In this document: one piece after another, positions 1,236-26,246 of the stretch | Layout: each line of letters starts with the position of its first letter | Position numbering within the stretch: the first letter of the stretch is position 1 | IMG/VR virus record: IMGVR_UViG_2862281513_000001 | Location: 54,919-118,918 of that record | From: a virus | Lineage: Duplodnaviria; Caudoviricetes | Length of the DNA stretch: 64,000 nucleotides | Strand: one strand, 5' to 3' | The notes under the pieces: generated by a model | What the model saw: only the letters and a program-made list of their open reading frames with translations | The model's database searches: none | Told to the model about the DNA's origin: nothing | Translations under genes and position numbers: made by a program

Positions 1236-1332
1236 GGTGGTGTGTCGTGCATTCATCATTGACCAAGAGCTTCGGGATAACCTCGGTTTACCGATTGATT
1301 TGGTCAAGGGATCGGCAAGTATGCCCAGGTCA
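1236..1332 (-). repeat. Array repeat R1
   Basis: ggtggtgtgtcgtgcattcatcattgacc-N37-ggtcaagggatcggcaagtatgcccaggtca. Confidence 0.95.
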
Positions 1333-1380
1333 GGGCCTTGCCGGGGGCCGCCCGCCCGAGGGCAGGCGGCCCGCCGTCCG

Positions 1381-1695
1381 CTAGATGAAGCGGGCCAGCT
1401 CGCGGGCCCCGCGGGTGATGATGTTGTCCTCGCCGCCCCGGAGCAGGGCGCGGGTGGCGGCCATCAGGTCGCGGCGGGCCTGCTCGCGGTGCGCGATGGC
1501 CTCCCGACGGATCTTCTCGCCGGCCGCGATCAGCCGCTCGGCGTCCAGCTGGCCCTTGGTGACGCTGCGGCGGATCTCGCACGCCCAGGCGACCTGCTCG
1601 CTGCGGATCAGGCGCTTGACGAGGTCGAGCGCATCGTCCGCGTCGCCCGCGCCCGCGATCAGCTCGGTCTCTTCGAGGAGGGTAGCGAGGTCCAT
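1381..1695 (-). CDS. Hypothetical protein (helical, 104 aa)
   Basis: ORF with RBS after R2 and hairpin after the stop. Confidence 0.7.
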   Translation of the reverse strand: MDLATLLEETELIAGAGDADDALDLVKRLIRSEQVAWACEIRRSVTKGQLDAERLIAAGEKIRREAIAHREQARRDLMAATRALLRGGEDNIITRGARELARFI

Positions 1696-1714
1696 CGTGC
1701 ACTCCCTGGTGGGT

Positions 1715-1811
1715 GGTGGTGTGTCCTGCATTCATCCTTCCGCCAACCCTCCGGGCCAACCTCGTTATCCCGGGAAGTTTGGTCAAGGAATCGTCAGGAA
1801 ACCGCAGGTCA
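1715..1811 (-). repeat. Array repeat R2
   Basis: aacctcgttatcccgggaagtttggtcaaggaatcgtcaggaaaccgcaggtca; supplies the upstream stop. Confidence 0.95.
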
Positions 1812-2471
1812 GAGGCCGAACAACCCGTCCTGTACCGGCTCGGCGACCGGCGCCGTGGCGGGCTTGCCGTGGACCAGGTGCTCGGCGACCGTCCATCCGG
1901 TCCACGCGGGCGGCGTCTCGCCTCGCCGGCTGCTGTTGCCGGTGAGGACGAGCAGGTCGGCGCGGGCGAGGTGGACCGTGCCGTCGAGGATCAGCCACAC
2001 CTCGCAGCGGGGCAGGCCGAGCGCGGTGATCATGGCCAGGTGGTGGATGTCGCCCCATCCGGCGTGCAGTGCACCAGGAGCGACCCAGACCCACGTGCCG
2101 AGGTTCACGTCGCCCGGTCCGGCCGGGGTGTGCCGGTAGGGCGGGCGCTGCCGTACAGGCCGCGGTGGCTTCGGCGGGTAGAAGTGGCTCGGCGGGTAGT
2201 GCGGCTGGCGGGCCTCTTTGAGTTCGGCGGCCTGCCACCGGGTGACGTCGGCCGGGGTGTAGCAGAGGGGGCCGACGTGCCACTTGCGGGGCGTCGTCTT
2301 GTCCCGCCAGACGGCCGCGCCGCAGGTGCAGCGGCTTTCCGACAGGTGCTCTCGTGCGGGTCCGCAGGGCCAGGCGGTGTTGCACGGGCGGCAGGCCGGC
2401 TGGCCGCTGTCCAGGCCGTGCGGGAGGTGGTGGTCGGGCAGGCGGATCGGCCGGATCGTCCAGGGCCTCAC
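1809..2471 (-). CDS. Hypothetical Cys-rich protein
   Basis: GTG start after GAAAGGA; CxxC..WPC motif; stop inside R2. Confidence 0.6.
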   Translation of the reverse strand: MRPWTIRPIRLPDHHLPHGLDSGQPACRPCNTAWPCGPAREHLSESRCTCGAAVWRDKTTPRKWHVGPLCYTPADVTRWQAAELKEARQPHYPPSHFYPPKPPRPVRQRPPYRHTPAGPGDVNLGTWVWVAPGALHAGWGDIHHLAMITALGLPRCEVWLILDGTVHLARADLLVLTGNSSRRGETPPAWTGWTVAEHLVHGKPATAPVAEPVQDGLFGL

Positions 2472-2551
2472 TGGGGCGTCCTTTCCGGGTGCGGTGGGTG
2501 GAGGATGGGCGCGGGCCGGGGAGCGCTCCCTGCTCCCCGGCCCGCCGGCTG

Positions 2552-3250
2552 CTACTGGCTCAGGACGTGGACGGCCTTGCCCGGACGGCGGGGCGAGTAG
2601 CACAGGTACTCGCCCCATTCGTCGTTCACGCCCTTGCCGGTGCGGTCCCAGACGAGCGTCCGGTCGCACTGGGCGCACGTTCCGGCGTCCTCCCCCGGCC
2701 TGCCCTGCTGCGGGAGGGTGTTGAGGAGGCGGACGGCTTCGGGCAGGCAGGTCGCGGTGTGGACGGTGGCGGTGGGGTCGACGGGCGCCTGGTGCAGCTG
2801 CTCGGACGCGGTCGTGGCATCCGGGACGATCACGGTGGTGAGGCCGTCGGCGGCGGCGGCGTTGACGCTGGCGAGGATGCCCTCGGGGGCGCGCAGCCAG
2901 CCGGCCAGGTCGAGTTCGCCGGTTACCGCGATGCGGTCGAGGGCCCCCTCGTGGATGTGGCCGGCCGCGGCGAGGATGGCGCAGGCGATGGCGAGGTCGG
3001 ACAGGGTGCCGTACGGGCGGTGGTCGTCCCGGGTGACCTGCACGTTGACGGTGCCGTCGGGCCACTCGTAGCCGCTGTTGATGAGGGCCGCGCGGATGCG
3101 GTCGCGGGTCTCGCGCTCGTGGTCGACGCCGAGGATGACGCTGGCGTCGGGGGCGTCGGGCCAGATCCGGGCGAGGACCGTTGCGATGCCGTCGGCGGTG
3201 CCGACCCGGGCGGTCGCGCGGCGTTCGGTGGGGGTGCGGCTGTCGTTCAT
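2552..3250 (-). CDS. Stand-alone ComM/YifB (ChlI/LonC-like) N-terminal domain with C-terminal Cys motif
   Basis: RETRDRIRAALINSGYEWP, DLAIACAILAA, GELDLAG, VIVP; no AAA+ domain. Confidence 0.75.
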   Translation of the reverse strand: MNDSRTPTERRATARVGTADGIATVLARIWPDAPDASVILGVDHERETRDRIRAALINSGYEWPDGTVNVQVTRDDHRPYGTLSDLAIACAILAAAGHIHEGALDRIAVTGELDLAGWLRAPEGILASVNAAAADGLTTVIVPDATTASEQLHQAPVDPTATVHTATCLPEAVRLLNTLPQQGRPGEDAGTCAQCDRTLVWDRTGKGVNDEWGEYLCYSPRRPGKAVHVLSQ

Positions 3251-3374
3251 GGCGGTGGCCTTTCTGGTGAGCGGAGGCGCCGGGGTGGCGGTTCCGGGGC
3301 GGGCGGCGCGCACCAGGCCCGTGGGCCTGTCGCGCCGCCCGCCCCGGGGGCGGCCGGCCGGCCGCCCGGCCGGG

Positions 3375-3590
3375 TCAGAAGCCGAACTCGCAGTACTCGC
3401 AGAACGTCGTCCGCACCTCCCCCTTGTTGTTGGTGAGCGGGACCAGGTCCTCGCCGCAGTCGCCGCAGACGCCGAAGTCGGTGACCGGCAGGGGGGTGCT
3501 GACGGGCGCCGCCGGGAGGACGGGCGCGGGGCTGACGTTGACCGTCGCGGTGACCGTGCCGGTGCTGTTGCTGATGAGGAGGATCGCCAT
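3375..3590 (-). CDS. Small zinc-ribbon protein (paralog of 25950-26150)
   Basis: CGDC...FCEYC. Confidence 0.65.
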   Translation of the reverse strand: MAILLISNSTGTVTATVNVSPAPVLPAAPVSTPLPVTDFGVCGDCGEDLVPLTNNKGEVRTTFCEYCEFGF

Positions 3591-3609
3591 CGGGTGCTCC
3601 CTGGTGGTT

Positions 3610-3710
3610 GGTGGTGTGTTGTCCTGCATTCATCCTTCCACCACCCTCCCGGGATAACCTCGTTATCCCGGGAAGTTTGGTCAAGGAATCGTCAGTGAAA
3701 CCGCAGGTCA
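3610..3710 (-). repeat. Array repeat R3
   Basis: Perfect tcccgggataac-ctc-gttatcccggga core; supplies the upstream stop. Confidence 0.95.
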
Positions 3711-4499
3711 GCCCTCCTCGGCGAGCAGCTGGAGGGCGGTGACCGCGGCGGTCAGTCGGCGGGCGCCGATGACGTCGAGCTTGAGCCCCAGGGCGAGGAC
3801 GTCGCGGACCTGGTCGGTGGGGACGATGACGGTGCGGTAGCCGTTGGCGTGGGCGGTTCGGGCCGCGTCGTCGATTCCGGGCAGTGCCTCGACCGCGCCG
3901 CTGTGGCTGTTCAGCTCGCCGAGGAGCACGGCCTGGTCGAGGGCGCGCGGGTCGAGCTGGCCGCTGGCCGCGAGGAGGGCGCAGGCGGCCGCGAGGTCGA
4001 GGGTGCTGGTGACGTTGCGGTGATGGTCGATGCGGACAGACACCGCACCGCCGGGGAAGGTGAAGCCGCTGCGGGTGATCGCGTCGCGGATCCGGACGTC
4101 TGCCGTGCTGTCGTACTGGTTCCAGCCGGCGATCCGGAAGCTGTCCGCGCCGGGCCAGACCGTGGCCTCGACGAGCACCATGCCGGCCTTGGCGGCGCCG
4201 CTGGCGTGGGCGGCGGTGACGGCGAGGTTGCTGGTGTTGCTGTTCGGGGCGAGCGCGTACTCGGGGTTGCCGGATGCCTGCCGCAGGCCCTCGAGGAAGC
4301 TGTCGAGCGCCTCGGCCGCGGTGGCGCCCTTGATGATGTTGACCTCGCCGAGGGCGTCGGCCGCCTCGACGTCCAGCTCCTCGACGACGACCTGCCTGCG
4401 GGTGAGGTCGACGGGGGCGGGCGCGATGTCCCACAGGGTGTAGCTGGCTGCGTCGACGCGGCCGACGATGATGAACTCGGGGGTCCGGGTGGCGGTCAT
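3708..4499 (-). CDS. Second stand-alone ComM/YifB N-terminal-domain protein
   Basis: RIRDAITRSGFTFP, LDLAAACALLAASG, LLGEL, VIVP. Confidence 0.75.
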   Translation of the reverse strand: MTATRTPEFIIVGRVDAASYTLWDIAPAPVDLTRRQVVVEELDVEAADALGEVNIIKGATAAEALDSFLEGLRQASGNPEYALAPNSNTSNLAVTAAHASGAAKAGMVLVEATVWPGADSFRIAGWNQYDSTADVRIRDAITRSGFTFPGGAVSVRIDHHRNVTSTLDLAAACALLAASGQLDPRALDQAVLLGELNSHSGAVEALPGIDDAARTAHANGYRTVIVPTDQVRDVLALGLKLDVIGARRLTAAVTALQLLAEEG

Positions 4500-4562
4500 G
4501 GCTGTCTCCTTGGTGGTGAGGTGGGGGCGGGCTGGGGGCGGCCGGCCGGCCGCCCCGGCGGT

Positions 4563-4835
4563 TCAGGACTTGCGGCGGTTGATCTGGTGGAGGGTGACGC
4601 CCTCGGCGGCCAGGGCCCGGCAGATGTTGCCGCGCACCCACCCGCCCCAGCCGTCCGACTCGTACTCGGCGAGGAACTGTCGCCGCTTGGGGTTGGCCGT
4701 GTTCGGGCTGAACGTGGCCGCCAGCTCGTAGGCCAGGACTCGGGTGCTCCACGGGCCTTCGAACAGCTCGTCGGAGATCGCGTTGTCCTCCAGGTCCCAG
4801 TACCGGTGGAGGAGGGGGGTCTGGGTCTGGTCCAT
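4563..4835 (-). CDS. Hypothetical protein
   Basis: ORF directly after R4. Confidence 0.65.
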   Translation of the reverse strand: MDQTQTPLLHRYWDLEDNAISDELFEGPWSTRVLAYELAATFSPNTANPKRRQFLAEYESDGWGGWVRGNICRALAAEGVTLHQINRRKS

Positions 4836-4860
4836 GGCTGGCGCTCCGTCCCTGGTGGGT

Positions 4861-4958
4861 GGTGGTGTGTCGTGCATTCATCATTGGCCAAACCCACCCG
4901 GTTAACCTCCCTAGCCGGGCGGATTTGGTCAAGAGATCGACAAGAAAACCGCTGGTCA
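4861..4958 (-). repeat. Array repeat R4
   Basis: Matches consensus; supplies the methyltransferase stop. Confidence 0.95.
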
Positions 4959-6755
4959 GGCGGCCAGGTCGTAGCGGCTGATCTCCTCGCCGGTGATGCA
5001 CTCGGCGAGCATGCAGATCAGCACCTCCGACGCGTTCGGGGTGACCGCGTTGCCCAGCTGGCGGACGCGGTCGCGCTTCGAGCCGAGCACCACGTAGTCG
5101 TCGGCGAAGGCCATCGCGCGCTGGATCTCGTGGGGCTGGAGCATCCGGAACAGGACGTCTTCGATCTTGATGTCGCCCTGGACGAGGGCGAAGCGGTCGC
5201 GGGTGGAGAGGGCGCCGACGGGCTCGCTGACCGGGCGCGGGGTCCCGTTGCCGTAGTACGGGGCCAGGAAGGGTTCCCAGGTGACGAGGGACTGGTGGCC
5301 GGTGGTGGTGAGGGTCCGCATCGGCTCGGCCAGGTCGGTGCAGTGTTCGCCGCCGTCGCCGGTGGAGCCGTTGTTCCGCATCATCATGCCCGGCATCGGG
5401 ACGGCGGCCAGGCCGTGGTGGTTGCCGCTGGCGCAGACCGTGGCGAGCGGGTCGGTGATGGCGCGGACGTCGCTGGAGCCGCCCCGGATCTCGGTGATGA
5501 ACGGCAGCCACGCGAGCCCGGCCTCGGCCCTGGCGGTCTGGGTCTGCATCGGCCCGTAGATCGTGCGGGCGTTCTTGCCTTCGCGGCCGTCGCAGGGGAC
5601 GAGCAGCGGCGGTACTGCGAGCGCGTCGTTCTCGCGGGTGGTGCGGGTCGGCATCGGCTCCAGCAGGTCGGTGGCCGCGTCGCGCCAGGTGCCGCCGGTG
5701 GGCACCATCAGCGGGCGGGCGAACTTGTCCAGCCCGGCCTGGATGCGCCGCATCGTCTTCTCCGCCAGCGGCGTCTTGCGGTCGCCGATCCGACCGCCGG
5801 GGATCGACCAGTCGATGGCGGCCGCCGCGGGGATCGTCTCGGGCTCCACGATCTGGTGGCCGCACTTGGTGTTCGGGCACCGGTAGTCGTACTGGCTCTT
5901 GTACCGGCCCATGTCGACGCCGGGCTTGCGGAACACCTGTCGGGCCTTGACCATCTGGTCGCAGCCGGTGCAGAACGCCGAGGGGGCGAGCCACTTCTCG
6001 AAGTTCGGGTTCCGGCCGAGGCTGGCGTGCCAGTACACGAAGTACAGCCGGTCACGGGACTGCGGGGCGCGGTGGACGCTGCGCGGGTCGGCGTGCATCG
6101 AGTTCAGCGCGACCAGCTTGGTCCGGTAGCCCAGCTTGTGGAACTCCGCCACCCAGCGGTCCCACTCGGCCCACTGCCGGACGTCGACCACGTTCTCGAC
6201 GACGCCCGCCTTGACGAGCCCGCCGCGCTCCTGGACGCCGCGCAGGTAGAGCGGGATCTCCTCCATCAGCGCCCGGCTGGCCTGCTCCTCCTCGGTGGGG
6301 CCGCCGCTGTCGCGCTCTTCCTCGGTCTGGAACTTCTCCTCCTCCAGCTCCGCGTACAGGTCGAGGAGGTCGCCCTGGACGGCCTTCGCGAAGTCCCGCT
6401 TCTTGCCCTGGGCGATCGACCACTTGGTGCACTCGGGCGAGCCCCAGTGGATGTCGGTGATCGGCCAGGCCCAGACCGGGGCCTTGCGGATGTCGCCGAT
6501 GTAGTGCGCGACGCCGGGGAAGTTCCGCTCGTGGCTCTCGATCGCGCGCTTCCAGTGGTTCGCGGCCCGGGTCACCTTGACGTTCGGGACGGCGTCCGCG
6601 CCCTGGGTGGAGCCGCCTGCGCCGCAGAACCAGTCCATGACGCTCAGTTCGGTGCCGTCGTGCCTGTACGCCTTGACTCGCCGGCGGCGGGCGTACGTCT
6701 GGGCGCCGCTGGAGGCCGAGGCCATCGCGCGGGTGGTGGAGGAGATGTAAGGCAT
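4956..6755 (-). CDS. DNA (cytosine-5)-methyltransferase, orphan
   Basis: FCGAGG (I), GSPEC (IV), ENV (VI), PQSRDR (VIII), QLGNAV (X). Confidence 0.9.
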   Translation of the reverse strand: MPYISSTTRAMASASSGAQTYARRRRVKAYRHDGTELSVMDWFCGAGGSTQGADAVPNVKVTRAANHWKRAIESHERNFPGVAHYIGDIRKAPVWAWPITDIHWGSPECTKWSIAQGKKRDFAKAVQGDLLDLYAELEEEKFQTEEERDSGGPTEEEQASRALMEEIPLYLRGVQERGGLVKAGVVENVVDVRQWAEWDRWVAEFHKLGYRTKLVALNSMHADPRSVHRAPQSRDRLYFVYWHASLGRNPNFEKWLAPSAFCTGCDQMVKARQVFRKPGVDMGRYKSQYDYRCPNTKCGHQIVEPETIPAAAAIDWSIPGGRIGDRKTPLAEKTMRRIQAGLDKFARPLMVPTGGTWRDAATDLLEPMPTRTTRENDALAVPPLLVPCDGREGKNARTIYGPMQTQTARAEAGLAWLPFITEIRGGSSDVRAITDPLATVCASGNHHGLAAVPMPGMMMRNNGSTGDGGEHCTDLAEPMRTLTTTGHQSLVTWEPFLAPYYGNGTPRPVSEPVGALSTRDRFALVQGDIKIEDVLFRMLQPHEIQRAMAFADDYVVLGSKRDRVRQLGNAVTPNASEVLICMLAECITGEEISRYDLAA

Positions 6756-6776
6756 GCGGTCCGTCCCTTCGGGTGG

Positions 6777-6874
6777 GGTGGTGTGTCGTGCATTCATCAT
6801 TGACCCCACCCCCCGGGATAATCGCGTTATCCCGGGGAGTTTGGTCAAAGAATCGTCAGGAAAGCCGCAGGTCA
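6777..6874 (-). repeat. Array repeat R5
   Basis: ttgacc-ccacc-ccccgggataa-tcgcg-ttatcccgggg-agttt-ggtcaa. Confidence 0.95.
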
Positions 6875-7759
6875 GACGCCGTCCGGCTGGAACGGGATCT
6901 GCGGGTGCCCGTCCTTATCCAGCGCGTACCAGCACCACTCGAAGTGGCCGCCGATGCAGTAGCGGCCGTCCTCGTTCGGCCAGATCGCCCGGACCGACTT
7001 CTCTCGCCTTGTGCCGCCGAGGTACATCCAGCCGATTTCGAGCACGACGACTTCGGCACGGCTGTCGACCGTGCCGTCCAGGACGTGGATGGTGTTCACG
7101 AAGCCGTGCCCGTAGCGGGCGGCCTCGGCCTGGGTCTCGGCCGCGATGATCCGGACGGTGGGGAGGTCGAACCACGGCCGTACGAAGCCGTCGCGCTGGT
7201 CGGCCGGGTCGACGAGGGCCGGGTAGCGGTCGCGCTCGTTCGCGCACACCATGACCTCGACCATGGAGCTCGGGACTGCGTCCGGGGCGTCCGCGCCGGA
7301 CGGGTCGAGGGTGAGGGAGGCCGCGCGCGGGAGGTCGAGCGACCAGACCGGCCGGCCGTCCCGGCCGGGCAGCTCCTCGCACAGCGGGCTCCAGACGTCG
7401 CGCGTACTGTCGCCCAGGTACGCCGTCCAGCCGCCGAGGTCATGCAGGGCGTTCCCGGCCTCGGTCTCGCCGACGTCCTCGGTGAAGGTCCGCTCGTCAC
7501 CGGCGGCCGTCCAGTAGCGGCCGGTGGGAAACAGCGAGTCCTTGCCTTCGGTCAGTTCGAGCCGTGCGGCGTCGAACGGGGCGTCGGGCTGGTGGCCGGT
7601 GAGGATGTCGCGGACGGCCGCCGCGGTGACGACGAGCATGACGCGGCCGAGCTGCTCGTGCGTGGTGCGGTTGTCGTTGAGGGCCTGGTCGACGGCCTCG
7701 GCGAGTGCCTGGCTGGCGGGCAGTTCGTAGGCGGGGCGGGTAGGGGTCTGGCGTTCCAT
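6872..7759 (-). CDS. Hypothetical protein; C-terminal domain shared with 8789-9847
   Basis: GFVRPWFDL...WMYL...DGRYCIGGHFEWCW. Confidence 0.7.
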   Translation of the reverse strand: MERQTPTRPAYELPASQALAEAVDQALNDNRTTHEQLGRVMLVVTAAAVRDILTGHQPDAPFDAARLELTEGKDSLFPTGRYWTAAGDERTFTEDVGETEAGNALHDLGGWTAYLGDSTRDVWSPLCEELPGRDGRPVWSLDLPRAASLTLDPSGADAPDAVPSSMVEVMVCANERDRYPALVDPADQRDGFVRPWFDLPTVRIIAAETQAEAARYGHGFVNTIHVLDGTVDSRAEVVVLEIGWMYLGGTRREKSVRAIWPNEDGRYCIGGHFEWCWYALDKDGHPQIPFQPDGV

Positions 7760-7777
7760 GCCGTGTCCGTTCTGTGT

Positions 7778-7874
7778 GGTGGGTGCTACGTCCTCGATCC
7801 TTGACCCCACCGGCCGGGTTAACCTCGTTATCCCGGCCGAGTTGGTCAAGGATTCGTCAGTGAGCTGCTGGTCA
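7778..7874 (-). repeat. Array repeat R6
   Basis: ttgacc..cggccgggttaacctcgttatcccggccg..ggtcaa..ctgctggtca. Confidence 0.9.
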
Positions 7875-8759
7875 GCAGGTGATGCCGTCGGCCAGGTACG
7901 AGCCGTCTTCGGCGACGCTCAGGGCGAACACCTCGGTCGCGGGGCCGCGCTCGACGCGGGTGGCGGGCAGCCACCGGTAGCCGTCGAAGTCGGGGCGCCG
8001 GCCGCCTTCGCTCCTCCAGCAGAGCTGCCATCCGATCTTGCCGGGCTTGCTGCTGTTGCTCAGTCCGCCGGGGAACCCGAGCGAGCAGACGAGGAGCCGC
8101 AGGCCGACCATGAACGCCTTGGAGTGCATGCGCACCTGGTTCTGCTGGCGGCGGGGGGCGTCGTTGACCAGGCCGACGAGGAATGCGATCCGCAGCGTCT
8201 CGGGCATCGTCAGCACCCAGGCCGGGAAGCGGCGACCGGCCCCGTACTGGCCGAAGTGCTCGGCGAGCCAGTCGACCAGCTCGGGCCGGACGGCGGCCGC
8301 GGCCGCGCCCTTGAGGCGGATCATCGCCCCGGCGGCGTGGAGGACGTCCACCAGGTCCGCGTCGGCGAGCGGGGCGGGCAGGTCGGGGATGGGCAGCGGC
8401 TCCCCGAAGTGGAGTGGCGTGGCCAGCCGGTGGCGGTCGGTCAGGTCGCGGGCCCTGGTCCAGCCAGCTGCCGACAGGTCCCCGGCCGGGCCGCCGTCCA
8501 GCAGGACGGGCGCGGTCCGCGTGTGGAAGGGATGGTCGGCGGTCGTGGCGAAGCCGCTGATGTACGAGGCGCAGTGGACGCGGACGGTCTCGGTGGTCGC
8601 GGTCATCGTCTCGGTGACCGGGCGCCACCGGCGCTCGTGGGTGAACACCTCGTCCCCGGGGGTGACGGTCTCGATGGGGACGATGCCGCGCAGGGTCAGG
8701 ATCATGGTCCCGGCCGGGAAGCCTTCGGGGGCGGGTGCCGGGGGGCTCTGGTTGTCCAT
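7872..8759 (-). CDS. Free-standing Hint/intein-like protein with LAGLIDADG remnant, splicing termini absent
   Basis: GFPAGTMILT..IVPIE..GDEV (block A), TTADHPF (block B), AFLVGLV, VFALSVAEDGSYLADGITC* (blocks F/G without HN). Confidence 0.8.
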   Translation of the reverse strand: MDNQSPPAPAPEGFPAGTMILTLRGIVPIETVTPGDEVFTHERRWRPVTETMTATTETVRVHCASYISGFATTADHPFHTRTAPVLLDGGPAGDLSAAGWTRARDLTDRHRLATPLHFGEPLPIPDLPAPLADADLVDVLHAAGAMIRLKGAAAAAVRPELVDWLAEHFGQYGAGRRFPAWVLTMPETLRIAFLVGLVNDAPRRQQNQVRMHSKAFMVGLRLLVCSLGFPGGLSNSSKPGKIGWQLCWRSEGGRRPDFDGYRWLPATRVERGPATEVFALSVAEDGSYLADGITC

Positions 8760-8788
8760 GTGAGGTCCCTTCTCGTGGGGCGGTGGGG

Positions 8789-9847: not shown

Positions 9848-9915
9848 GGCGGGGTTACCTCTCTGGGTGGGTGGTGGGGCGCCCCGCCCGGCGGGCGGGG
9901 CACCGTGGGTGGCGA

Positions 9916-10224
9916 TCAGCTGGTGAAGAGGGCGAGCCACTCGTCCGCGCGCTCCGGGAGGCGCGTCTCCTTGCCCGCCCAGGCCATCTCGTCGTCGATC
10001 TGGCGGGCGAGCAGCTCGAACCGCTCGGAGGTGAAGTGCTCGCCGCGCTCCAGCGCCTGGGCCAGGGAGTGGGCCTTGATGGCCGCCGACCGCATCGCCT
10101 CCTTCTCGCAGCCGAAGCGCAGGAGGTCGGCGCGGGCGCCGGCGACCGTGCCGTAGCCGGTGAGGGCTGCGGCCGTGGCCTGGGCTGCGGTGGTGACGGT
10201 GATGGTGCGGGTGATGGTGGCCAT
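9916..10224 (-). CDS. Hypothetical protein
   Basis: ORF after R7 with GGGAG RBS. Confidence 0.7.
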   Translation of the reverse strand: MATITRTITVTTAAQATAAALTGYGTVAGARADLLRFGCEKEAMRSAAIKAHSLAQALERGEHFTSERFELLARQIDDEMAWAGKETRLPERADEWLALFTS

Positions 10225-10247
10225 GTCGGGCTCCCTGGGTGGTGGTG

Positions 10248-16020: not shown

Positions 16021-16046
16021 GGTGCCCTCCGTGGTGGTTGGTGGTG

Positions 16047-18904: not shown

Positions 18905-18960
18905 GCTTCCTCCTGGGGAGATGCGGGCGGCCCGGCCCCCGAGGGGGCCGGGCCGGGTGG

Positions 18961-19227
18961 TCAGTGGACGCGGGTGGCGGCCATCGCGGCCTCGACGATC
19001 GGGAGGGTCTCGGTGAGGGTGGCCGCGATGTAGAGGCACTCGTGGTTGCCCCAGGCCGCGCGGCCGGCGATGTAGGCCGCGCCGCTGCCCTGCGGGAGCT
19101 GGACGGTGTAGGTGTAGCCCGCGTGCTCGATCTCGGTCCGCAGGCCCAGGGTGGTGCGCTGCCAGCGGGTGGCCTCCGCCGCCGAGGCGAAGAGGGCGGT
19201 GAGGGTGGTGGCGGGGATGGTGGCCAT
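18961..19227 (-). CDS. Hypothetical protein
   Basis: ORF after R13. Confidence 0.7.
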   Translation of the reverse strand: MATIPATTLTALFASAAEATRWQRTTLGLRTEIEHAGYTYTVQLPQGSGAAYIAGRAAWGNHECLYIAATLTETLPIVEAAMAATRVH

Positions 19228-19248
19228 GTCGGGCTCCCTGGGGTTGGT

Positions 19249-19342
19249 GGTTGGTGACACCTTCATCATTGCTCCCACCCTCCGGGATAACCTCGTTATC
19301 CCGGATTGTTTGGTCAAGAGATCGGCAAGTATGCCCAGGTCA
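19249..19342 (-). repeat. Array repeat R13
   Basis: Perfect tccgggataac-ctc-gttatcccgga core; outer box identical to R1. Confidence 0.95.
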
Positions 19343-19783
19343 GACGTAGTGCCGGGGGTCGCGGCCGTCACGGATGGCCGCCAGCCGTTGGAGCTGGCGG
19401 CCAATCCCCATGCCTACACCGATCAGCGGGGTCAGCGCGTGCGGCCAGACCTCCCGGCAGTGGCCGACGTAGAACCGCCCGGCGAGCACGATGACGTCCT
19501 CCGCCTGGTCGACGCCCAGCTCTCCGGCCTGCTCGCGCAGCCTGTCGACGGTCACGCCGTCCGGGTCGCCGGGGCGCGTGTCGTACGGCTGGAGGACTTG
19601 CGTGGTGCGGACGAAGCCGTGCAGGTCGCTGAGGATGAGGAGCGTGCCGCCGTCGACGATGAGCCGATCGGCCGCCGCCCGGCACGCGCGGTGATAGCTG
19701 CCGACGTACAGCTCGCCGGCCGGTGCCGGGTGGTCCAGCTTGCGGGCCGCGCAGGGGATGACGACGAGGCGGGTTGCGGTCAT
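19340..19783 (-). CDS. DUF6884-like protein
   Basis: LVVIPCAARKLDHPAPAGELY..ILSDLHG..PYD. Confidence 0.7.
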   Translation of the reverse strand: MTATRLVVIPCAARKLDHPAPAGELYVGSYHRACRAAADRLIVDGGTLLILSDLHGFVRTTQVLQPYDTRPGDPDGVTVDRLREQAGELGVDQAEDVIVLAGRFYVGHCREVWPHALTPLIGVGMGIGRQLQRLAAIRDGRDPRHYV

Positions 19784-19799
19784 GCCGGGGTCGTTCCTT

Positions 19800-20327
19800 T
19801 CAGTCGCGGCCGTCGAGGGCGGCCAGCTTGCGGACCAGGCCCCAGCCGTCGCGCCAGAACGAGCGCCGGGTGTTGTCGTACGCCTCGCGCCACTCGGGCG
19901 GCACCTGGCCGTCGTCCCTGACGTACGTGCCGGTGAGCAGGTCGTACCGGCCCAGCAGCTCGGTCGCCTCGTCGGCGACGTCGTCGAGGCCGCGCCGCCG
20001 TGCGTGCTCGGGGCGCAGGTCGATGTGACCGAGCTTGTGGTCGCCCTGGGGCATGCCCTCGTACGACTCGTCGGCGACCACCATGCAGTCGGGCGTCTCC
20101 TCGGCCGCCATGTGCCAGGCGAGCGCTGCCGCCCAGGCTTTCTCCGTCGAGCAGGCGTCGAGGACGTAGCGGGTGGGGCCGCCGCTGGGGCCGGTGCGGC
20201 CGTGCCGCTCGGGGCCGATGACGGCCACGGTGAACGGCCGCTCGTTCTGCCGGTAGTCGTCGGGCAGGTTGCCGTAGAGGGGCTCGCCGCCGTAGCGCTC
20301 AGGCGTCTCCAGGTACTTGCCGGGCAT
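19800..20327 (-). CDS. Hypothetical protein
   Basis: ORF with GGAAGG RBS. Confidence 0.65.
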   Translation of the reverse strand: MPGKYLETPERYGGEPLYGNLPDDYRQNERPFTVAVIGPERHGRTGPSGGPTRYVLDACSTEKAWAAALAWHMAAEETPDCMVVADESYEGMPQGDHKLGHIDLRPEHARRRGLDDVADEATELLGRYDLLTGTYVRDDGQVPPEWREAYDNTRRSFWRDGWGLVRKLAALDGRD

Positions 20328-20360
20328 GCTGTGCCTTCCGTCGTGGGGTGGAGGAGGGGT

Positions 20361-20414
20361 GTCCGGACGGCGTCCGGATGCCGTCCGGATGCCGCGTCCG
20401 GACGGTGTCCGGAC
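20361..20414. repeat. GTCCGGAY cluster (5 copies, 11-13 bp period)
   Basis: Copies at 20361, 20372, 20383, 20396, 20407. Confidence 0.85.
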
Positions 20415-20424
20415 GCGGTGGGTG

Positions 20425-20955
20425 CTACCAGACGAGGACCGCCCCACCTGCGCGGACGACGTCCGGACGCTCGATCGGGACGTCGTCCGGATTGGTGGCC
20501 GCGTGGACGACGATCGGGTTGCGGTGCCAGCTGTCGTCCACCCACAGGTGCACCCAGGGCCGCCCGGAGTACGACCGCCCGTTCAGCTGCGGGCGAGGCC
20601 TGCCGAGGTAGACCCTGCGGGCGCTCCACGCTCCGTGGACCCAGATCCGGCCGGCCGCGTTGGCGTGGCGGATGCCGACCAGCTCGGCGAGGTCGAGCCC
20701 TTCGAGGGAGAGGTCTCGCAGCTCGGCCGCGAGCGTGCGGAGCGTCCAGGTCGACGTCCAGCCGAGCCGCTCGGCGCTGGCCTCGCGCAGGGTGCGCAGC
20801 TCCAGCGGGCTGAGCGGCTCGTCCTGGTGGCGCCGGTGGATCGCCTCGTCCAGCGCGCGCAGGAGGTGCCACGGGGCGGCCTGGTCGTCGCTGGCGGGGA
20901 GGTAGGTGGCGGCGGTGGCGTAGACGCCCCGGATGGTGGCCTCGGTGACCTTCAT
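20425..20955 (-). CDS. Hypothetical protein
   Basis: ORF with GAAAGG RBS. Confidence 0.65.
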   Translation of the reverse strand: MKVTEATIRGVYATAATYLPASDDQAAPWHLLRALDEAIHRRHQDEPLSPLELRTLREASAERLGWTSTWTLRTLAAELRDLSLEGLDLAELVGIRHANAAGRIWVHGAWSARRVYLGRPRPQLNGRSYSGRPWVHLWVDDSWHRNPIVVHAATNPDDVPIERPDVVRAGGAVLVW

Positions 20956-21040
20956 GGCTGCCTTTCTGGATGAGGTGGGGCGTCCGGACGGTGGCCGCTG
21001 AGCTGGGCGGATACCGTCCGGACGCCGTCCGGACGGTGGG

Positions 21041-21676
21041 TCAGGAGAAGTTGGTCTGGTCGGCGTGCTCGCCGCCGCGCTTCCAGATGAGGGCGCGGAC
21101 GTGGTTCGCGGGGACCTCGTAGAAGAGGCGGCCGGTGAGCGGGTCGCCGTTGAGGCGGGTCAGCTGGAGGCTCGTCTCCTCCAGCTCCCAGGCGTCGCTC
21201 GCGGGCGGCTCGATGCCCTCGGGCAGGTAGACGTCCACCTCGCCGTCGCCGGCTTCGGCCTTGATGGCGATGACCTCGCCGTCGGCCAGGCGGATGCGGA
21301 GCATCGGGCGGGGGCCGGTGCCGGTGCCTTCGAGTACGGCCTGGTCGAAGCGGTCGGTGGTGGGGTCGCTCTGGTCGGCGTGCTCGCCGCCGTGCTCCTC
21401 GATGAGCTTGCGGACGTCGGCCACCTGGACCTCGTAGAAGTAGCGGCCGTTGACCGGGTCGTCACCGGCGGTCAGCCATGCCTCCCACGCGTCTTCCAGC
21501 TCCCAGCTGTCGCCGTCGGGGGTCTGGATCTCGTCGGGCAGGTAGACGTCCACGGTGGCCGCGCAGGAGGCCGCCTTGATGCTGATGAGCTGGCCGTCGG
21601 CCAGGCGCAGGTTGTAGTGGACGCCGCCGGTGCCGTCGGCGAGGAACTGCTCGAAGTGGGAGGTGGTGGTGGCCAT
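21041..21676 (-). CDS. Hypothetical protein made of two tandem ~85-aa domains
   Basis: RLADG..IKA..VDVYLP..WELE..FYEV..GGEHADQ occurs twice. Confidence 0.75.
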   Translation of the reverse strand: MATTTSHFEQFLADGTGGVHYNLRLADGQLISIKAASCAATVDVYLPDEIQTPDGDSWELEDAWEAWLTAGDDPVNGRYFYEVQVADVRKLIEEHGGEHADQSDPTTDRFDQAVLEGTGTGPRPMLRIRLADGEVIAIKAEAGDGEVDVYLPEGIEPPASDAWELEETSLQLTRLNGDPLTGRLFYEVPANHVRALIWKRGGEHADQTNFS

Positions 21677-21701
21677 GGCTGGCTCCGTTCGGTGAGTGGT
21701 G

Positions 21702-21795
21702 GGTGGTGACACCTTCATCATTGACCCCACCACCCGGGATAACCGCGTTATCCCGGGAAGTTTGGTCAAGGATTCGGCAAGGAAACCGCTGGTCA
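21702..21795 (-). repeat. Array repeat R14
   Basis: cccgggataac-cgc-gttatcccggg core; supplies the upstream stop. Confidence 0.95.
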
Positions 21796-22407
21796 GACGG
21801 TGGCGACCGCGGCGGTGAAAGCGGCGTCGAGGGACTGGACGAAGTCGGCGCCGACGGCCGCGAGGTGGGCGGCCTGGCGGGCTTCGGCCGCCTCGGCGTC
21901 CCTGGCGTGGACGGCCAGCCCGCACGAGCACCAGGTGGTGGTGCGGTCGCTGGAGTCCATCCGCTCGTGGGCGGCGGCCACCAGACTGAGGCGGGCGGCC
22001 AGGGTGAGGCGCAGGTGCTCGTTGTCGGTGTTGAGGAGGAACCCCTGGGCGAGGAGCCGCTCCGCCCGGCTCGGCGGGATCTGGCAGACGCCGGCCTCGA
22101 TGACGGGCAGGGTGTACCGCTCGGAGTCGACGAGGCGGACGACGGGGACGGAGGCGATGACCCGCAGGTCGGACAGCTCGTAGTCGGTGGGGTCGGCGGG
22201 GACTTGCGGGGTGAGGGTGATGGAGCGCAGGGCCGGGGTCAGCGTGCCGGGGTCGATCCGGCGCCAGCGGATGATGGCGCCGCCGGTGCGCTGGGGCTCG
22301 ATGGCGTAGCCGCGGTTGCAGGCCCGGCGCAGGAGGACCAGGGCGTGGGGCTCGCTGGCGGTGCCGGTGGTGGTGCTGCTGCCACTGTCGACGGTCTCGG
22401 TGAACAC
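21793..22407 (-). CDS. Hypothetical protein
   Basis: GTG start after AGGAGG; WCSCG..H motif. Confidence 0.65.
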   Translation of the reverse strand: MFTETVDSGSSTTTGTASEPHALVLLRRACNRGYAIEPQRTGGAIIRWRRIDPGTLTPALRSITLTPQVPADPTDYELSDLRVIASVPVVRLVDSERYTLPVIEAGVCQIPPSRAERLLAQGFLLNTDNEHLRLTLAARLSLVAAAHERMDSSDRTTTWCSCGLAVHARDAEAAEARQAAHLAAVGADFVQSLDAAFTAAVATV

Positions 22408-22463
22408 GATGGCCTCCTGGGTGGGGGGTGGGGCCCGGCCGGGGCTGTGGCCGGGCCCTGGGT

Positions 22464-22561
22464 GGTGGTGTGTCGTGCATTCATCCTTGACCAAGCCTGG
22501 CCGGTTAACCTCGATGTACCGGCCGGTTTGGTCAAGGGATCGACAAGGAAACCGCTGGTCA
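22464..22561 (-). repeat. Array repeat R15
   Basis: Matches consensus; supplies the upstream stop. Confidence 0.95.
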
Positions 22562-23488
22562 GGCGCGGGGGTGGCGGTGGGCGTTGGCGTCCAGCCAGAC
22601 CGTCAGCCGCAGTGCGGCCTCGGCGCACTCGCCGGCCAGGTCCAGCCCTGACGGGGCCTCGAACAGGACGTCCACGTGCTCGCCGTTGGCGCTGTACAGG
22701 GCGGCCACCCATGGCTCCTCGTGGTCGGCCGGGTCGAGGTAGGCGCTCTCGCCGGAGTACAGGTAGACCTTCGAGCCGGTGTGGGCCTCGTCCTCGTCGG
22801 CGCTGCGGTCGACCGCGACCAGGACGTAGCTGATTCCGCCGTCGTCGAGGTAGAGGAAGGCCGGGACGCCGAACTCCGCCAGCGCTGCGACCAGCTTGTC
22901 CCCGTCGTGCGGCCCTGCGGCGGCCGCGGCCTTCTTGGCGTAGCCGCGCTGGGCGGCCAGGTGGAACGGCGGCTTGCCCTGGTTGTACGGGCGGGCGTTG
23001 TCGTCGGCCACGACCTTGGCGAGCTGGTCGCGCTTGTAGTGGATCGCCGCCAGGGAGCGCAGTGCCCAGGCCACGGTCTCGTCGTCGTCGGATTCGAGCT
23101 GGCGGCCGTGGAGGACGGTGTTGCGGCGCTTCTGGAGCTCGAAGTCGTCGCGGGCGAGCTTCTCGCTCACCGCGCCGAGGGCCCTCATCGGGCCGACCTC
23201 GCCGAGGGCGGGGGCGACCGCGTAGTCCAGGACGGCCGGGGAGAGGTGGAAGTCGTGCGCCGTCATCAGGTCGCGGGCTTCCTGCAGACTGTCGAGCGTC
23301 TCGGCGGGCAGCCGGCGGCCGTCCTCGATCGGGTAGGCCGGGGCGGTCAGGGCCGCGAAGCGGATGCTGGCGGCCAGGCGGCCGATGTACCAGCGGTCGG
23401 AGTGGTGGGCGCGGTCCTCGACGATCCCGGCGAGGATGCGCAGCCTGCGGGCGACGGCCTCGGTGGCGGTGGTGGCGATGGTACTCAT
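22559..23488 (-). CDS. Hypothetical protein
   Basis: 309-aa ORF with coding-like composition. Confidence 0.75.
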   Translation of the reverse strand: MSTIATTATEAVARRLRILAGIVEDRAHHSDRWYIGRLAASIRFAALTAPAYPIEDGRRLPAETLDSLQEARDLMTAHDFHLSPAVLDYAVAPALGEVGPMRALGAVSEKLARDDFELQKRRNTVLHGRQLESDDDETVAWALRSLAAIHYKRDQLAKVVADDNARPYNQGKPPFHLAAQRGYAKKAAAAAGPHDGDKLVAALAEFGVPAFLYLDDGGISYVLVAVDRSADEDEAHTGSKVYLYSGESAYLDPADHEEPWVAALYSANGEHVDVLFEAPSGLDLAGECAEAALRLTVWLDANAHRHPRA

Positions 23489-23509
23489 GGCGTTCCCTTC
23501 GGAGTGTGG

Positions 23510-23980
23510 TCAGGCCCAGCGGCGCAGGGCGTGCTGGCGGCGGCCGAGGTAGGGCACCGCGGCGTCGGGGTGCTGGCTGGCGATGTGGGCGGCGGCCGAC
23601 TCGCGGGCGCCGTCGCGGGTGGTGCCGGTGCGGCCGATGGTCGGGCAGTCGAAGTTGAAGCCGTCGGCGGCGACGGTCTCGCCGGTGATGACGTGGACCT
23701 CGCAGCGCCAGACCCACCGCCCGCGCCGGGCGCCGGGCTCCTGCCGGTAGGAGACGAGCGCGACGGGGGCGGGGGCGCCCACGGCCTCCAGCAGGCAGCC
23801 GGTGACGGCGCCGTTGGGCTCGTCGAAGGGGAGGACGACGGGGCGGGTCTCCCACCAGCGCAGGTTCAGGGTCGGCCACTGGTCGGCGGGTACGGGCTGG
23901 TCGTCGGGCAGGAACTCGCCGGGTGCGGCCAGGAGGGGCCAGTCGGGGCGGACGTGGTGGAGGTGGGGCAGGCGTTCCAT
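23510..23980 (-). CDS. Hypothetical protein
   Basis: ORF with GAAAGGA RBS. Confidence 0.65.
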   Translation of the reverse strand: MERLPHLHHVRPDWPLLAAPGEFLPDDQPVPADQWPTLNLRWWETRPVVLPFDEPNGAVTGCLLEAVGAPAPVALVSYRQEPGARRGRWVWRCEVHVITGETVAADGFNFDCPTIGRTGTTRDGARESAAAHIASQHPDAAVPYLGRRQHALRRWA

Positions 23981-23991
23981 CGGGGTTCCTT

Positions 23992-24342
23992 TCAGCTGGC
24001 GAGCGCGAGGATGTGGACGGCGATTCGGTGGGCGCACATGTGGATGCCGCGCAGTCCGGCCGGGCACGTGCAGGCCGCTCGTGCCGTCCGGTAGGCCTCC
24101 AGGCCGTCGCTGCTGACGGCGAGGTAGACGCGGTTCTTGCGGGTGTCGCGGAGGGGGATGACGCCGCCCTGTTCGAGCAGCTCCTCGGCCTTGTCGACCA
24201 GGTGCGGCTTGTACTGGGTCAGCTCCTCGGACCGGCGCGCCCGCCTCACCTTCCGGCGGCATTTCGGGCCGAGGCCGTCGGGTGAGGAGTTCCGCAGACG
24301 CCGGCCGCACTTGAGGCACTTGGTGACCGGCGTTGCGTCCAT
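23992..24342 (-). CDS. Zinc-finger protein (DUF6011-like N-terminus plus SWIM-like motif)
   Basis: CLKCGRRL..GLGPKC; CTCPAG..MCAH. Confidence 0.7.
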   Translation of the reverse strand: MDATPVTKCLKCGRRLRNSSPDGLGPKCRRKVRRARRSEELTQYKPHLVDKAEELLEQGGVIPLRDTRKNRVYLAVSSDGLEAYRTARAACTCPAGLRGIHMCAHRIAVHILALAS

Positions 24343-24361
24343 CGCTGCTCCCTCGGTGGTG

Positions 24362-24469
24362 GGTGGTGTGTCGTGCATTCATCATTGACCGAATGGCTCG
24401 GGATTATCCGCGTTATCCCGGATGATTTGGTCAGGGATTGGTCAAGAGAGGGCGCTCCGCTGCTGGTCA
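24362..24469 (-). repeat. Array repeat R16
   Basis: cgggattatccgcgttatcccg core; outer box lies within a terminator-like hairpin. Confidence 0.9.
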
Positions 24470-24486
24470 GCGGCGGGGCGCCCCGT

Positions 24487-25251
24487 TCAGGCGGTGAGCT
24501 CGGCGAGGAGGACGGTGGCGTTGTCCACGAACCGCTGCTCGTCCTCGGTCCGGCTCTTGCGGGAGGTCTCCACGGCCAGGTCGACGAAGCGGCGGGCGAT
24601 GGCGGGCAGCTGCTCGTCGTCCAGCTCCACGAACAGGTCGTGCCGGGCCTCCTCGTGCGGCTCGTACGCGCCGTCGGTGGCCAGGACGAGGCGGTCGCCG
24701 TCGGCGATGTCGTGGGTCGCCGTCTCGATCGCCGGGTGACCGTAGCCGGCCTGGGCGTCCTCGTCGGTGAGGACGGCGCCGAGGTAGGAGGTGATCATGT
24801 TGCGGTTGCCGCCCTCGGGGTGGGTGGCGGTCGGCGGGTAGACCCGGCGAAGGTTGTGGTCGTCGGTCAGCCGGTGGGCGATGCCGTGGTGCAGGAGGTA
24901 GGCGCGGGAGTCTCCGGCCCAGGCGACGACGAGGGGCTTGCCGGGAGCGGTGACGGCGACGACGGCGGCTGCGCTGGGGAGGTAGCGGCGCTCGTAGGGG
25001 TCCTGGCGGTCGGGGTCGGCCGCGATCTCCTCGTACAGGGAGCGCAGGGCGCTCTCGGCGTCGCCGCGGCGGGCGGCCCGGGTGGCGAGGCGGGCGGCCA
25101 TGGTGCGGGTCCAGTCGCGGATCGTCTCGGAGGTGCCGATGCCGTCGAGGACGGCGTACGCGCGGATGCCGTCGGCGCCGGTGCGGACGGCGGCCGCGTC
25201 GCACTGGATGCCCCTGCCGCCGATGTTCTGGGCGGTCGCGTAGCTGCGCAT
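24487..25251 (-). CDS. PP2C/PPM family Ser/Thr phosphatase
   Basis: VLDGIG, AWAGDSRAY, LTDDH, VLATDG, DNATV. Confidence 0.9.
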   Translation of the reverse strand: MRSYATAQNIGGRGIQCDAAAVRTGADGIRAYAVLDGIGTSETIRDWTRTMAARLATRAARRGDAESALRSLYEEIAADPDRQDPYERRYLPSAAAVVAVTAPGKPLVVAWAGDSRAYLLHHGIAHRLTDDHNLRRVYPPTATHPEGGNRNMITSYLGAVLTDEDAQAGYGHPAIETATHDIADGDRLVLATDGAYEPHEEARHDLFVELDDEQLPAIARRFVDLAVETSRKSRTEDEQRFVDNATVLLAELTA

Positions 25252-25316
25252 GGGTCGTGCTCCGTTCGGTGAGGGGTGGGGCGCCCCGCGGTCGCGGGGC
25301 GCCGTCGTCGGTGGGA

Positions 25317-25805
25317 TCAGCTCTGCTCGCTGGCGGGGCGTACACACGTCTCGTGGGTGTGGCAGTTGCACTTGCCGCAGCCCGCGCACATCTGGCCGGC
25401 CTCCAGCCCGCAGGGTCCGCAGCCGCCGGAGGCGTCCAGCTCGGCATCGTCGATCGCGTTCATCAGCTCGAACGCCTTCTGCTTGTCGAAGCGGGACCGC
25501 GGCCTGCACGAGCCGTCGCAGAACTCGGGGCCGCCGAGGAGGACGCTGTCCTCGCCCTGGTGGCCCTCGCAGCCCTCGGCCTCCCTGAGCGTGACCGTGA
25601 TGTCGTGCACCTTGAGCACGCCCTCACCCGTCTTGTCGCAGGCGTGGCGCAGGAGCTCGACGTCCATGTGCAGGGCGAGGCCCTCGGTGGGCGGCTTGCC
25701 CTGCACCAGGGCGAGGCTCCTGATGATGCCTCGCAGCTGGCTGGAGTCGGCGGCGCTGTAGTTGCGGTCCTCGATGGCGGGGTGCTCGATGACGACGTCG
25801 TACAC
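25317..25805 (-). CDS. Cys-rich hypothetical protein
   Basis: CEGH..FCDGSC; several CxxC. Confidence 0.7.
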   Translation of the reverse strand: MYDVVIEHPAIEDRNYSAADSSQLRGIIRSLALVQGKPPTEGLALHMDVELLRHACDKTGEGVLKVHDITVTLREAEGCEGHQGEDSVLLGGPEFCDGSCRPRSRFDKQKAFELMNAIDDAELDASGGCGPCGLEAGQMCAGCGKCNCHTHETCVRPASEQS

Positions 25806-25824
25806 GGCGTTTCCTTCCTGAGCG

Positions 25825-25917
25825 GGTGGTGTGTCCTCATTCATCCTGGACCATACAGCCCTGGATTACACACCGTATCCCGATGGATTTGGTCGAATGC
25901 TTGCCAGGGGAAGCCGC
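25825..25917 (-). repeat. Array repeat R17 (degenerate)
   Basis: ggtggtgtgtcctcattcatcctggacc..ggattacacaccgtatcccg..tttggtcga. Confidence 0.8.
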
Positions 25918-25949
25918 CCCGCCCGGCAAGTGGAGGGGCGGCCTGGCGG

Positions 25950-26150
25950 TCAGCGACGGGCGGGCCGCGAACCGGCGAGCGGGAGCCCCAGGTCGCAGTG
26001 CTCGCAGAACACGACGTCACTGTTGTCGGTGAGGCACACCAGCTCCAGCCCACAGTCGCAGGTGCCGAGGTCCGGCAGCTCGGGCAGCGGCCGGGTGACC
26101 CGCACGGCCGGCTCGTTGACGACAGTGGCGGCGATGGTGGATGCGCTCAT
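25950..26150 (-). CDS. Small zinc-ribbon protein (paralog of 3375-3590)
   Basis: GTCDCG..VFCEHCDLG. Confidence 0.65.
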   Translation of the reverse strand: MSASTIAATVVNEPAVRVTRPLPELPDLGTCDCGLELVCLTDNSDVVFCEHCDLGLPLAGSRPARR

Positions 26151-26172
26151 GACTCTCTCCCTGGGGTGGTGC

Positions 26173-26246
26173 GGTGGTTTGTCGTACTTCATTCCTCCCC
26201 TGTCCACCCATGTCCACCCTCGTTTGGTCGAGAAAAGCCCAGTTCA
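26173..26246 (-). repeat. Array repeat R18 (short head copy, no central palindrome)
   Basis: ggtggtttgtcgtacttcattcc...tttggtcgagaaaagcccagttca. Confidence 0.6.

Follow-up and report, generated by a model that had tools for sequence, protein, structure and literature searches.

The 64,000-nt window analysed here (positions 54,919 to 118,918 of the IMG/VR record IMGVR_UViG_2862281513_000001) belongs to a Streptomyces prophage and carries, over some 26 kb at its left end, an array of 19 copies of a structured intergenic unit of about 105 nt, all in one orientation and each placed ahead of a small group of genes. The prophage occupies C1:4164412-4290267 and is integrated at a tRNA-Leu(UAA) gene (L003:104-187, the right end of the window), which is adjoined by the gene of a tyrosine integrase (62174-63964); the size of about 126 kb follows from a 27-bp repeat of the tRNA 3′ end that lies 125.8 kb leftward. 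RecT and YqaJ are encoded at 56.6-58.6 kb of the window, and to the left of the window lie a tRNA-Arg gene and genes for a DAM-like methylase-GNAT fusion, a ParB_N protein, the large terminase and a MuF-ADP-ribosyltransferase fusion. The array, situated between the RecT/YqaJ region and the terminase, therefore fills the stretch right before the packaging genes. The integrase beside the tRNA gene, RecT/YqaJ, the terminase and the MuF protein bear out a first-pass annotation, made from the sequence alone, that had assigned the window to an actinobacterial prophage. GC3-based gene calling placed all genes of the array on the minus strand, and the unit must therefore be read on this strand.

A repeat search of the window returned families with 12-16 copies, and the patterns of the inner palindrome and of the outer box matched eight and nine times, respectively, with no match expected for either. 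A profile hidden Markov model (HMM), built from 16 copies and searched against all 24 contigs of the genome (9.62 Mb), detected 18 copies (E-values 4e-10 to 5e-29), which share one orientation and lie within C1:4226065-4252057, and no unit outside the array. Together with a degenerate nineteenth, the array comprises 17 clear units, the degenerate unit, which is the first, and one unit spanning the left edge of the window; every copy is intergenic and on the minus strand. The first-pass annotation had described 18 same-orientation copies of fixed layout and none in the rest of the window; the copies are real, the layout holds when read on the minus strand, and the absence extends to the rest of the genome.

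Counting from the array head, with scores in bits obtained by cmsearch with a covariance model, the degenerate first copy (26155..26262) has no left hairpin arm but retains the leader and the boxes upstream and downstream. It is followed by a weak copy (25819..25925, 63.6 bits), a copy with 9 nt inserted into its 5′ box (24356..24470, 83.3 bits), a copy at 22458..22562 (95.9 bits) and the best match to the model, at 21692..21796 (113.8 bits, hairpin z-score −5.4). The next copies are located at 19240..19343 (97.1 bits), 16037..16142 (94.3 bits), 15179..15284 (96.4 bits) and 12872..12976 (63.3 bits); in the last of these a GC-rich terminator-like stem-loop replaces the 5′ boxes. Further leftward lie the copies at 12240..12345 (108.9 bits), 11532..11636 (96.7 bits), 10238..10342 (105.1 bits), 7772..7875 (88.7 bits), 6771..6875 (113.5 bits), 4855..4959 (109.5 bits), 3607..3711 (100.9 bits), 1709..1812 (97.3 bits) and 1230..1333 (87.6 bits). 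The last copy has its 5′ end at 1..24 and its other 80 bases beyond the left edge of the window (L004:920-1024), and is preceded by a GC-rich stem-loop.

An exact-pattern scan, which used one genome per species, revealed the element in five more Streptomyces species as well as in an IMG/VR provirus of 111 kb, and the covariance model found 7-16 same-orientation copies over 20-25 kb in each of these relatives. Further carriers are S. afghaniensis and Actinacidiphila reveromycinica, which brings the related prophages to eight altogether; the nine prophages together supplied 99 copies for analysis. The covariance model found no match in 150 sampled Streptomyces genomes, and the element is therefore confined to one prophage lineage.

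Unit anatomy and the covarying dyad

Within its approximately 105 nt, the unit contains, in order, a box that starts with TGA (CTGACCWGCGG), a second TGAC box, a −35-like box with the adjoining AAA (TTGACCAAA), a hairpin of about 49 nt containing CCGGGATAAC-N3-GTTATCCCGG, an A/T-rich box (GGTCAATGATGAA), a C/A-rich tract (CACCACC) and a strong ribosome site. The upstream gene terminates on the TGA of the first box in 11 of the 18 copies of this array and, over six arrays, in 33 of 83, and a start codon lies 11-22 nt past the unit in 74 of 83 copies. Column conservation, counted over 89 aligned copies, is highest in the −35-like box with its AAA (79-89 of 89 per position), in the apex of the hairpin (G-A-G-G-t-T-A), in the box after the hairpin and in the CCACC tract. 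The −35 box itself, TTGACC, is nearly invariant (T87 T79 G86 A79 C88 C89 of 89). Genome-wide mapping of transcription start sites in S. coelicolor gave NTGACC as the −35 motif and TANNNT as the −10 motif (PMC4895711), and the TTGACC box of the unit corresponds to the former.

The hexamer nANNNT was tested at each offset from 8 to 33 nt after the −35 box in the 99 copies of the nine prophages. It is present 16 nt after the box in 21 copies and 17 nt after it in 61, that is, in 82 of 99, while nearly all other offsets show it in 0-8% of the copies, with a maximum of 12% at offset 29. The hexamer, which sits at the apex of the palindrome, is mostly GAGGTT and varies between phages (GAGGTT, GAGGGT, CAGAGT, CAGGGT) with the spacing constant, and variation of the hexamer with the spacing kept is what a −10 element predicts. 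In about 15 copies, a GC-rich terminator-like stem-loop replaces the 5′ boxes and stands directly before the −35 box; this is the usual order of a terminator followed by a promoter, and it favours a promoter. The first-pass annotation had read each repeat as a co-regulated promoter/operator, and the anatomy is organised like such a unit, with a −35 box, a correctly spaced hexamer at the apex of a dyad, a leader and a ribosome site. Neither a U-tract after the hairpin nor an AT-rich upstream tract is present in the sequence of the unit. A −10 element in the box after the hairpin was considered and rejected: that box ends in A in 32 of 89 copies, among them nearly every copy of three genomes, and there is no −35 box 16-18 nt upstream of it. 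A leader peptide read from the ATG in the downstream box was rejected as well, its frame differing between copies.

The structure of the hairpin was obtained from single-sequence folds; RNAalifold, run on the first alignment with its gapped degenerate rows, gave none. The hairpins fold better than shuffled sequences (z-scores from −1.4 to −6.8), and in 8 of 12 cases none of the 200 shuffles folded as well. The base of the hairpin is composed of the −35 box and its complement, and AAC and GTT flank a loop of 3-5 nt at the apex. Compensating changes within this genome are modest (16 double-change cells vs 9.2 ± 2.5); over the 89 copies they amount to 128 double-change cells vs 69 ± 6, with none of 500 shuffles as high and slid controls far lower, in an alignment that was fitted to the covariance model and leans toward structure for this reason. 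By these counts, the dyad is under selection. Mismatches of the two kinds are equally common (G·T 112, A·C 104), so there is no sign that only the sense RNA must fold, and a DNA dyad, acting as an operator or a cruciform, would fit at least as well as an RNA hairpin.

Hairpin identity is 0.61 between copies within a genome, 0.55 between non-orthologous copies of different genomes and 0.63 between orthologous copies; the likeness of copies within a genome indicates either a trans-acting factor common to them or gene conversion. An alternative hairpin, pairing the G-rich right arm with the C/A-rich leader, was no better than shuffles (mean z-score 0.08). A search with the Rfam covariance models had a best E-value of 0.14, far below the gathering score.

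Gene order, gene content and the array head

Comparison of gene order as strings of protein families showed that it is nearly identical in nine arrays, and that most gene families are present in every array; the genes therefore do not behave as interchangeable cargo. When all DNA-homology ends without another explanation were collected for this array against six others, 59 breakpoints fell at 17 repeat junctions, 64 at 16 plain junctions and 65 inside genes. Gene boundaries are favoured, as in phage mosaicism generally, and repeats are not favoured beyond that. Some modules consisting of a repeat and a small gene have nevertheless moved or been duplicated, namely those of a 78-aa family found at three positions, of a duplicated 95-aa family and of a zinc-ribbon family, and the left breakpoint of the moved modules coincides exactly with the start of a repeat. 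Together with the slight homogenisation of copies within a genome, these moves indicate that some homologous exchange between repeats occurs. A Phage_integrase search of the array genes and their neighbours revealed no recombinase in or beside the array; the sole integrase, encoded 36 kb from it, belongs to the tRNA att site.

The first-pass annotation had envisaged a shuffling platform with cassette-like contents, in which each repeat is also a recombination joint used by a site-specific recombinase or by RecT/YqaJ. The near-constant gene order with the even spread of breakpoints over repeat and plain junctions, the presence of most gene families in every array and the lack of a recombinase at the array speak against the platform, the cargo and the site-specific mechanism, respectively, and the reading of the array as an integron-like shuffler is not supported. 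What stands of the joint is the occasional relocation of a module and the slight homogenisation; enrichment of breakpoints at repeats is not found.

The repeats serve 34 genes (36..26150, minus strand); domain searches left many of them without an assigned function. Among those related to DNA are a gene for ParB, genes for two HTH_ParB paralogues and genes for C5 and N6 DNA methyltransferases; the others include two ChlI/Lon-like proteins, two DUF3560 proteins, a DUF6884 protein, a PP2C protein and small zinc-ribbon proteins. The 391-aa protein encoded at 36-1211 is a genuine ParB (E-value 6e-37 to a solved ParB and 1.8e-11 to KorB). The small proteins of the array have no match in PHROGs or Pfam, and a megablast search of the array against phage and plasmid collections gave matches only to pieces of the methyltransferase genes. 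The prophage contains no sigma-factor gene, so host sigma factors must serve it.

The zinc-ribbon family (CxxC...CxxC) comprises proteins of 55-77 aa, with 2-4 copies per phage, here at 25950-26150 and 3375-3590 on the minus strand; each of these genes is the first after a repeat, and one of them opens the whole array. No family match was found for the zinc-ribbon proteins of the array; their size and motif recall the small zinc-finger activators of late genes in phages P2 and P4. Two internal repeats spaced 315 nt are present at 21050-21607 in a gene for a 211-aa protein, and a 69-nt tandem repeat lies at 16869-17006 inside the gene of a 921-aa DUF3560 protein. Runs of a short GTCCGGAC-type motif occur at 38653-38835 of the window and also in an intergenic gap of the Actinacidiphila reveromycinica array (L085:4970-5138). 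The S. afghaniensis array contains genes for a tyrosine integrase, an HTH_26 protein and a 690-aa protein (L086:189-3817), a group that has the appearance of a second mobile element lying within the prophage. Elsewhere in the prophage studied here, a 1389-aa protein (L001:3242-7411, minus strand) combines a phage Mu F-like head domain with an ADP-ribosyltransferase domain and is probably a virion-delivered enzyme. The tRNA-Leu(UAA) at the att site is of the bldA type; the prophage has its own second tRNA-Leu(UAA) at C1:4171707-4171782, and also a tRNA-Arg(TCG).

At the head of the array, a divergent gene on the plus strand (26317..26925) encodes a 202-aa protein, a candidate regulator with two helical repeats of about 80 aa each. 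Its structural model is confident (pLDDT 85) and contains both helical repeats. Sequence searches gave weak matches to helix-turn-helix (HTH) proteins only, and a distant homologue (E-value 4e-5) is gp102 of phage TurkishDelight (NC_073473), annotated as HTH and encoded at the same position. Homologues of the 202-aa protein form about 30 protein clusters in Streptomyces and Actinacidiphila, and both loci examined carry the repeat element. The divergent intergenic region (26150-26320 of the window) is highly conserved across this and the eight related prophages and holds one half-site resembling the left hairpin arm (GGGATAAAC). Covariation of this half-site with the hairpin arms of each genome was considered and rejected; the half-site is conserved in nearly all genomes.

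Candidate functions of the units

We hold with moderate confidence that the units are co-regulated promoter/operator units read by the host RNA polymerase, and that recombination between them is an occasional by-product; the anatomy, the spacing of the hexamer and the covariation of the dyad are consistent with such a role. Each copy would suffice on its own for the expression of a group of one to four downstream genes. The host RNA polymerase with its housekeeping sigma factor would recognise the −35 box and then a weak −10-like hexamer, (G/C)AG-R-K-T, 16-17 nt downstream, placed at the apex of a dyad with arms of roughly 20 bp. The transcript would begin in the right arm, close to a G that 84 of 89 copies share, and would have a leader of about 60 nt with the conserved downstream box, the C/A-rich stretch and the strong ribosome site. 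The dyad covers the spacer, the −10 element and the start point, which makes it the likely control point common to all 19 units; it may bind a phage protein as an operator, damp read-through as a hairpin, or do both. A dyad shared in this manner would let the whole 26-kb block switch together. The homology of about 100 bp between copies would now and then duplicate, lose or relocate modules of a repeat and a gene and homogenise the copies, as a side effect. The data show the anatomy of the units, their conservation, the hexamer spacing, the covariation and the synteny; promoter activity, the position of the start site and the identity of a regulator are what we infer for these units.

Several observations weigh against this assignment. 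The first position of the hexamer is G or C and never T, which is why a strict scan with the E. coli-type sigma-70 consensus found no promoter in the array, and 17 of the 99 copies have no hexamer at all. In the first copy of nine genomes, which has no left hairpin arm, only 4 nt separate the −35 box from the apex hexamer, so this copy cannot work as the proposed promoter; in five genomes it has TGGACA 17 nt before the downstream box instead. A promoter/operator unit does not account for the very strong conservation of two further segments, the box after the hairpin and the AAA that follows the −35 box. The compensatory changes in the outer stem within one genome are not expected of a purely sequence-specific operator, and the model of the 202-aa protein, the candidate regulator, has no significant match in the PDB and shows no recognisable DNA-binding fold.

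The same compensating changes, which keep the stem in both strands, may alternatively reflect structure-gated promoters, in which the −10 element would be presented in the loop of an extrudable cruciform; supercoiling or a hairpin-binding phage protein would expose the single-stranded −10 to the host polymerase, and the 19 promoters would fire together, for instance on phage DNA that has just entered the cell or is replicating. Such a mechanism, which would parallel the hairpin promoters of phage N4 but use the host polymerase, is improbable in our estimation. The hairpins might also act in RNA. In phage T7, RNase III sites between the early genes cut the transcript, and a comparable arrangement would have one long transcript start at the hairpin-less first copy, with the intergenic hairpins serving as processing or stability signals or as sites of antitermination or translation control. 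The strength and covariation of the hairpins, their invariable position between cistrons, often touching the upstream stop codon, and the hairpin-less first copy of nine genomes, as expected if structure is needed only between genes, all agree with an RNA-level role. It is nonetheless unlikely: G·U pairs are not in excess over A·C, the best-conserved parts are unpaired boxes that agree with a promoter consensus and are correctly spaced, the terminator-like stem-loops before about 15 copies would block a long transcript, and neither an Rfam match nor a leader that folds better than shuffles was obtained.

The presence within the array of a genuine ParB and two paralogues with HTH_ParB only, together with palindromic sites at promoter-like boxes, invites the view that the repeats are loading or binding sites for these ParB-type proteins, and that a CTP-dependent clamp like KorB of plasmid RK2 silences or organises the block. 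Known parS and KorB operator sites are near-identical short palindromes, whereas the palindrome arms of the units vary among the copies of a single genome and do so with compensating changes; the number of paralogues also changes from one to three between arrays without a matching change in the repeats, and we consider this view highly improbable. Least credible of all is that the repeats are recombination joints of a cassette platform, through attC-like site-specific recombination or programmed RecT-driven exchange. Direct repeats of about 100 bp around every gene group, moved or duplicated modules that begin exactly at a repeat and the mild concerted evolution of the copies would suit it, but the constancy of gene order, the distribution of breakpoints and the distance to the sole integrase, at its tRNA att site, do not, and the AAC/GTT pair is at the apex of the hairpin and not at its base as in attC. 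The units read as co-regulated promoters with an operator dyad remain the preferred interpretation.

Relation to repeated control elements of other phages

The element is a variant of the repeated early-gene control elements known from other phages. Early promoters and conserved inverted repeats of phiC31 were reportedly described by Ingham et al. in 1993 and 1994, and about 10 promoter-like repeats and about 10 palindromes were recovered here directly from the sequence of the early intergenic gaps of this phage. Like the present prophage, phiC31 is a temperate Streptomyces phage with same-orientation promoter-like repeats and palindromic operator repeats in its early region. Its two motifs (CCGGGTTGCCGAC... 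and CCTACTCACGTGAGTAGG) stand apart from each other and show no sequence relationship to the unit described here, in which promoter boxes and dyad are fused at a fixed geometry within 105 nt and the dyad varies with compensation; the covariance model had no significant match in phiC31 (E-value 0.17).

A comparable arrangement is found in phage TurkishDelight, which has seven same-orientation repeats of a canonical promoter of the form TTGAC(A/T)-N17-nAnnAT (L082:12776-25087), for which no published description was found. They start right after the divergent gene of a two-repeat helical protein, which is homologous to the 202-aa gene described above, and occupy the corresponding right-end region upstream of genes for ParB-like proteins and methyltransferases, each gene group having one promoter; TurkishDelight also has a homologue of the DUF3560 protein of the array. 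This arrangement in a related phage lends weight to a promoter role of the present units. In contrast to the present unit, these repeats carry a short operator-like motif (TTGCAAAGT...) in the spacer and a better −10 element, and have no long hairpin; the covariance model revealed no sequence match in this phage.

Cluster K mycobacteriophages contain 11-19 start-associated repeats, and inverted repeats specific to the subgroup accompany half of them (PMC3203893); the function of these start-associated sequences (SAS and ESAS) is still unverified (PMC12699233). The similarities include an actinobacteriophage genome, 11-19 copies in one orientation before non-structural genes, imperfect inverted repeats with a subgroup-dependent consensus and a motif close to the start codon; the unit of the present prophage is longer and has −35-like and −10-like boxes. 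The SAS consensus GGGATAGGAGCCC (13 bp, up to 2 mismatches) had one match in the 64 kb, outside the array, vs 2.5 expected.

The promoter-early stem-loops (PeSLs) of T4-type phages act as promoters and terminators and form mini-circles (PMC2839356). As an analogue they were fairly chosen by the first-pass annotation, since both elements are units of about 100 bp that run from stop codon to start codon, with −35 and −10 or −10-like boxes, a stem-loop between the boxes or over the −10 and a ribosome site (PMC2839356, PMC4122927), and both are repeated ahead of many small non-structural genes. PeSLs belong to a lytic T4-like myovirus and not to the prophage of a temperate actinophage, and the sequences are unrelated; the present unit differs in its weak −10-like hexamer and in having neither an AT-rich upstream region nor a U-tract, and the present array in that the flanked genes are largely conserved and syntenic, the breakpoints against six other arrays showing no preference for the repeats. 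Imperfect hairpins that recur between genes are also shared with integron attC sites and with the single-stranded DNA promoters of plasmid leading regions, and orphan methyltransferases, ParB-like proteins and DUF3560 proteins among the array genes recall the leading regions. There is, however, no integron integrase, the boxes RYYYAAC...GTTRRRY (R″/R′) are not at the base of the stem and the gene content is not variable, in contrast to attC cassettes; unlike the plasmid promoters, the units belong to a phage and not to a conjugative element, and the pairing of their 49-nt hairpin does not build the −35 and −10 boxes. The earlier statement that the element does not match the consensus sequences of the analogues named there agrees with the negative comparisons with attC and SAS, and those with the phiC31 repeats and Rfam were negative as well.

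The results correct the attractive, unsupported idea of such arrays as integron-like shuffling platforms. Repeated control elements before early non-structural genes are present in several groups of actinophages, including phiC31 and the cluster K phages with SAS/ESAS, and their mechanism is mostly unproven. The array described here offers an unusually clear case, with a fixed 105-nt unit in about 100 copies from nine prophages, an exact host −35 box and a −10-like hexamer at the apex of a covarying dyad; the roles of promoter, operator and hairpin are separable by simple mutagenesis, and the units could serve as co-regulated expression parts for Streptomyces.

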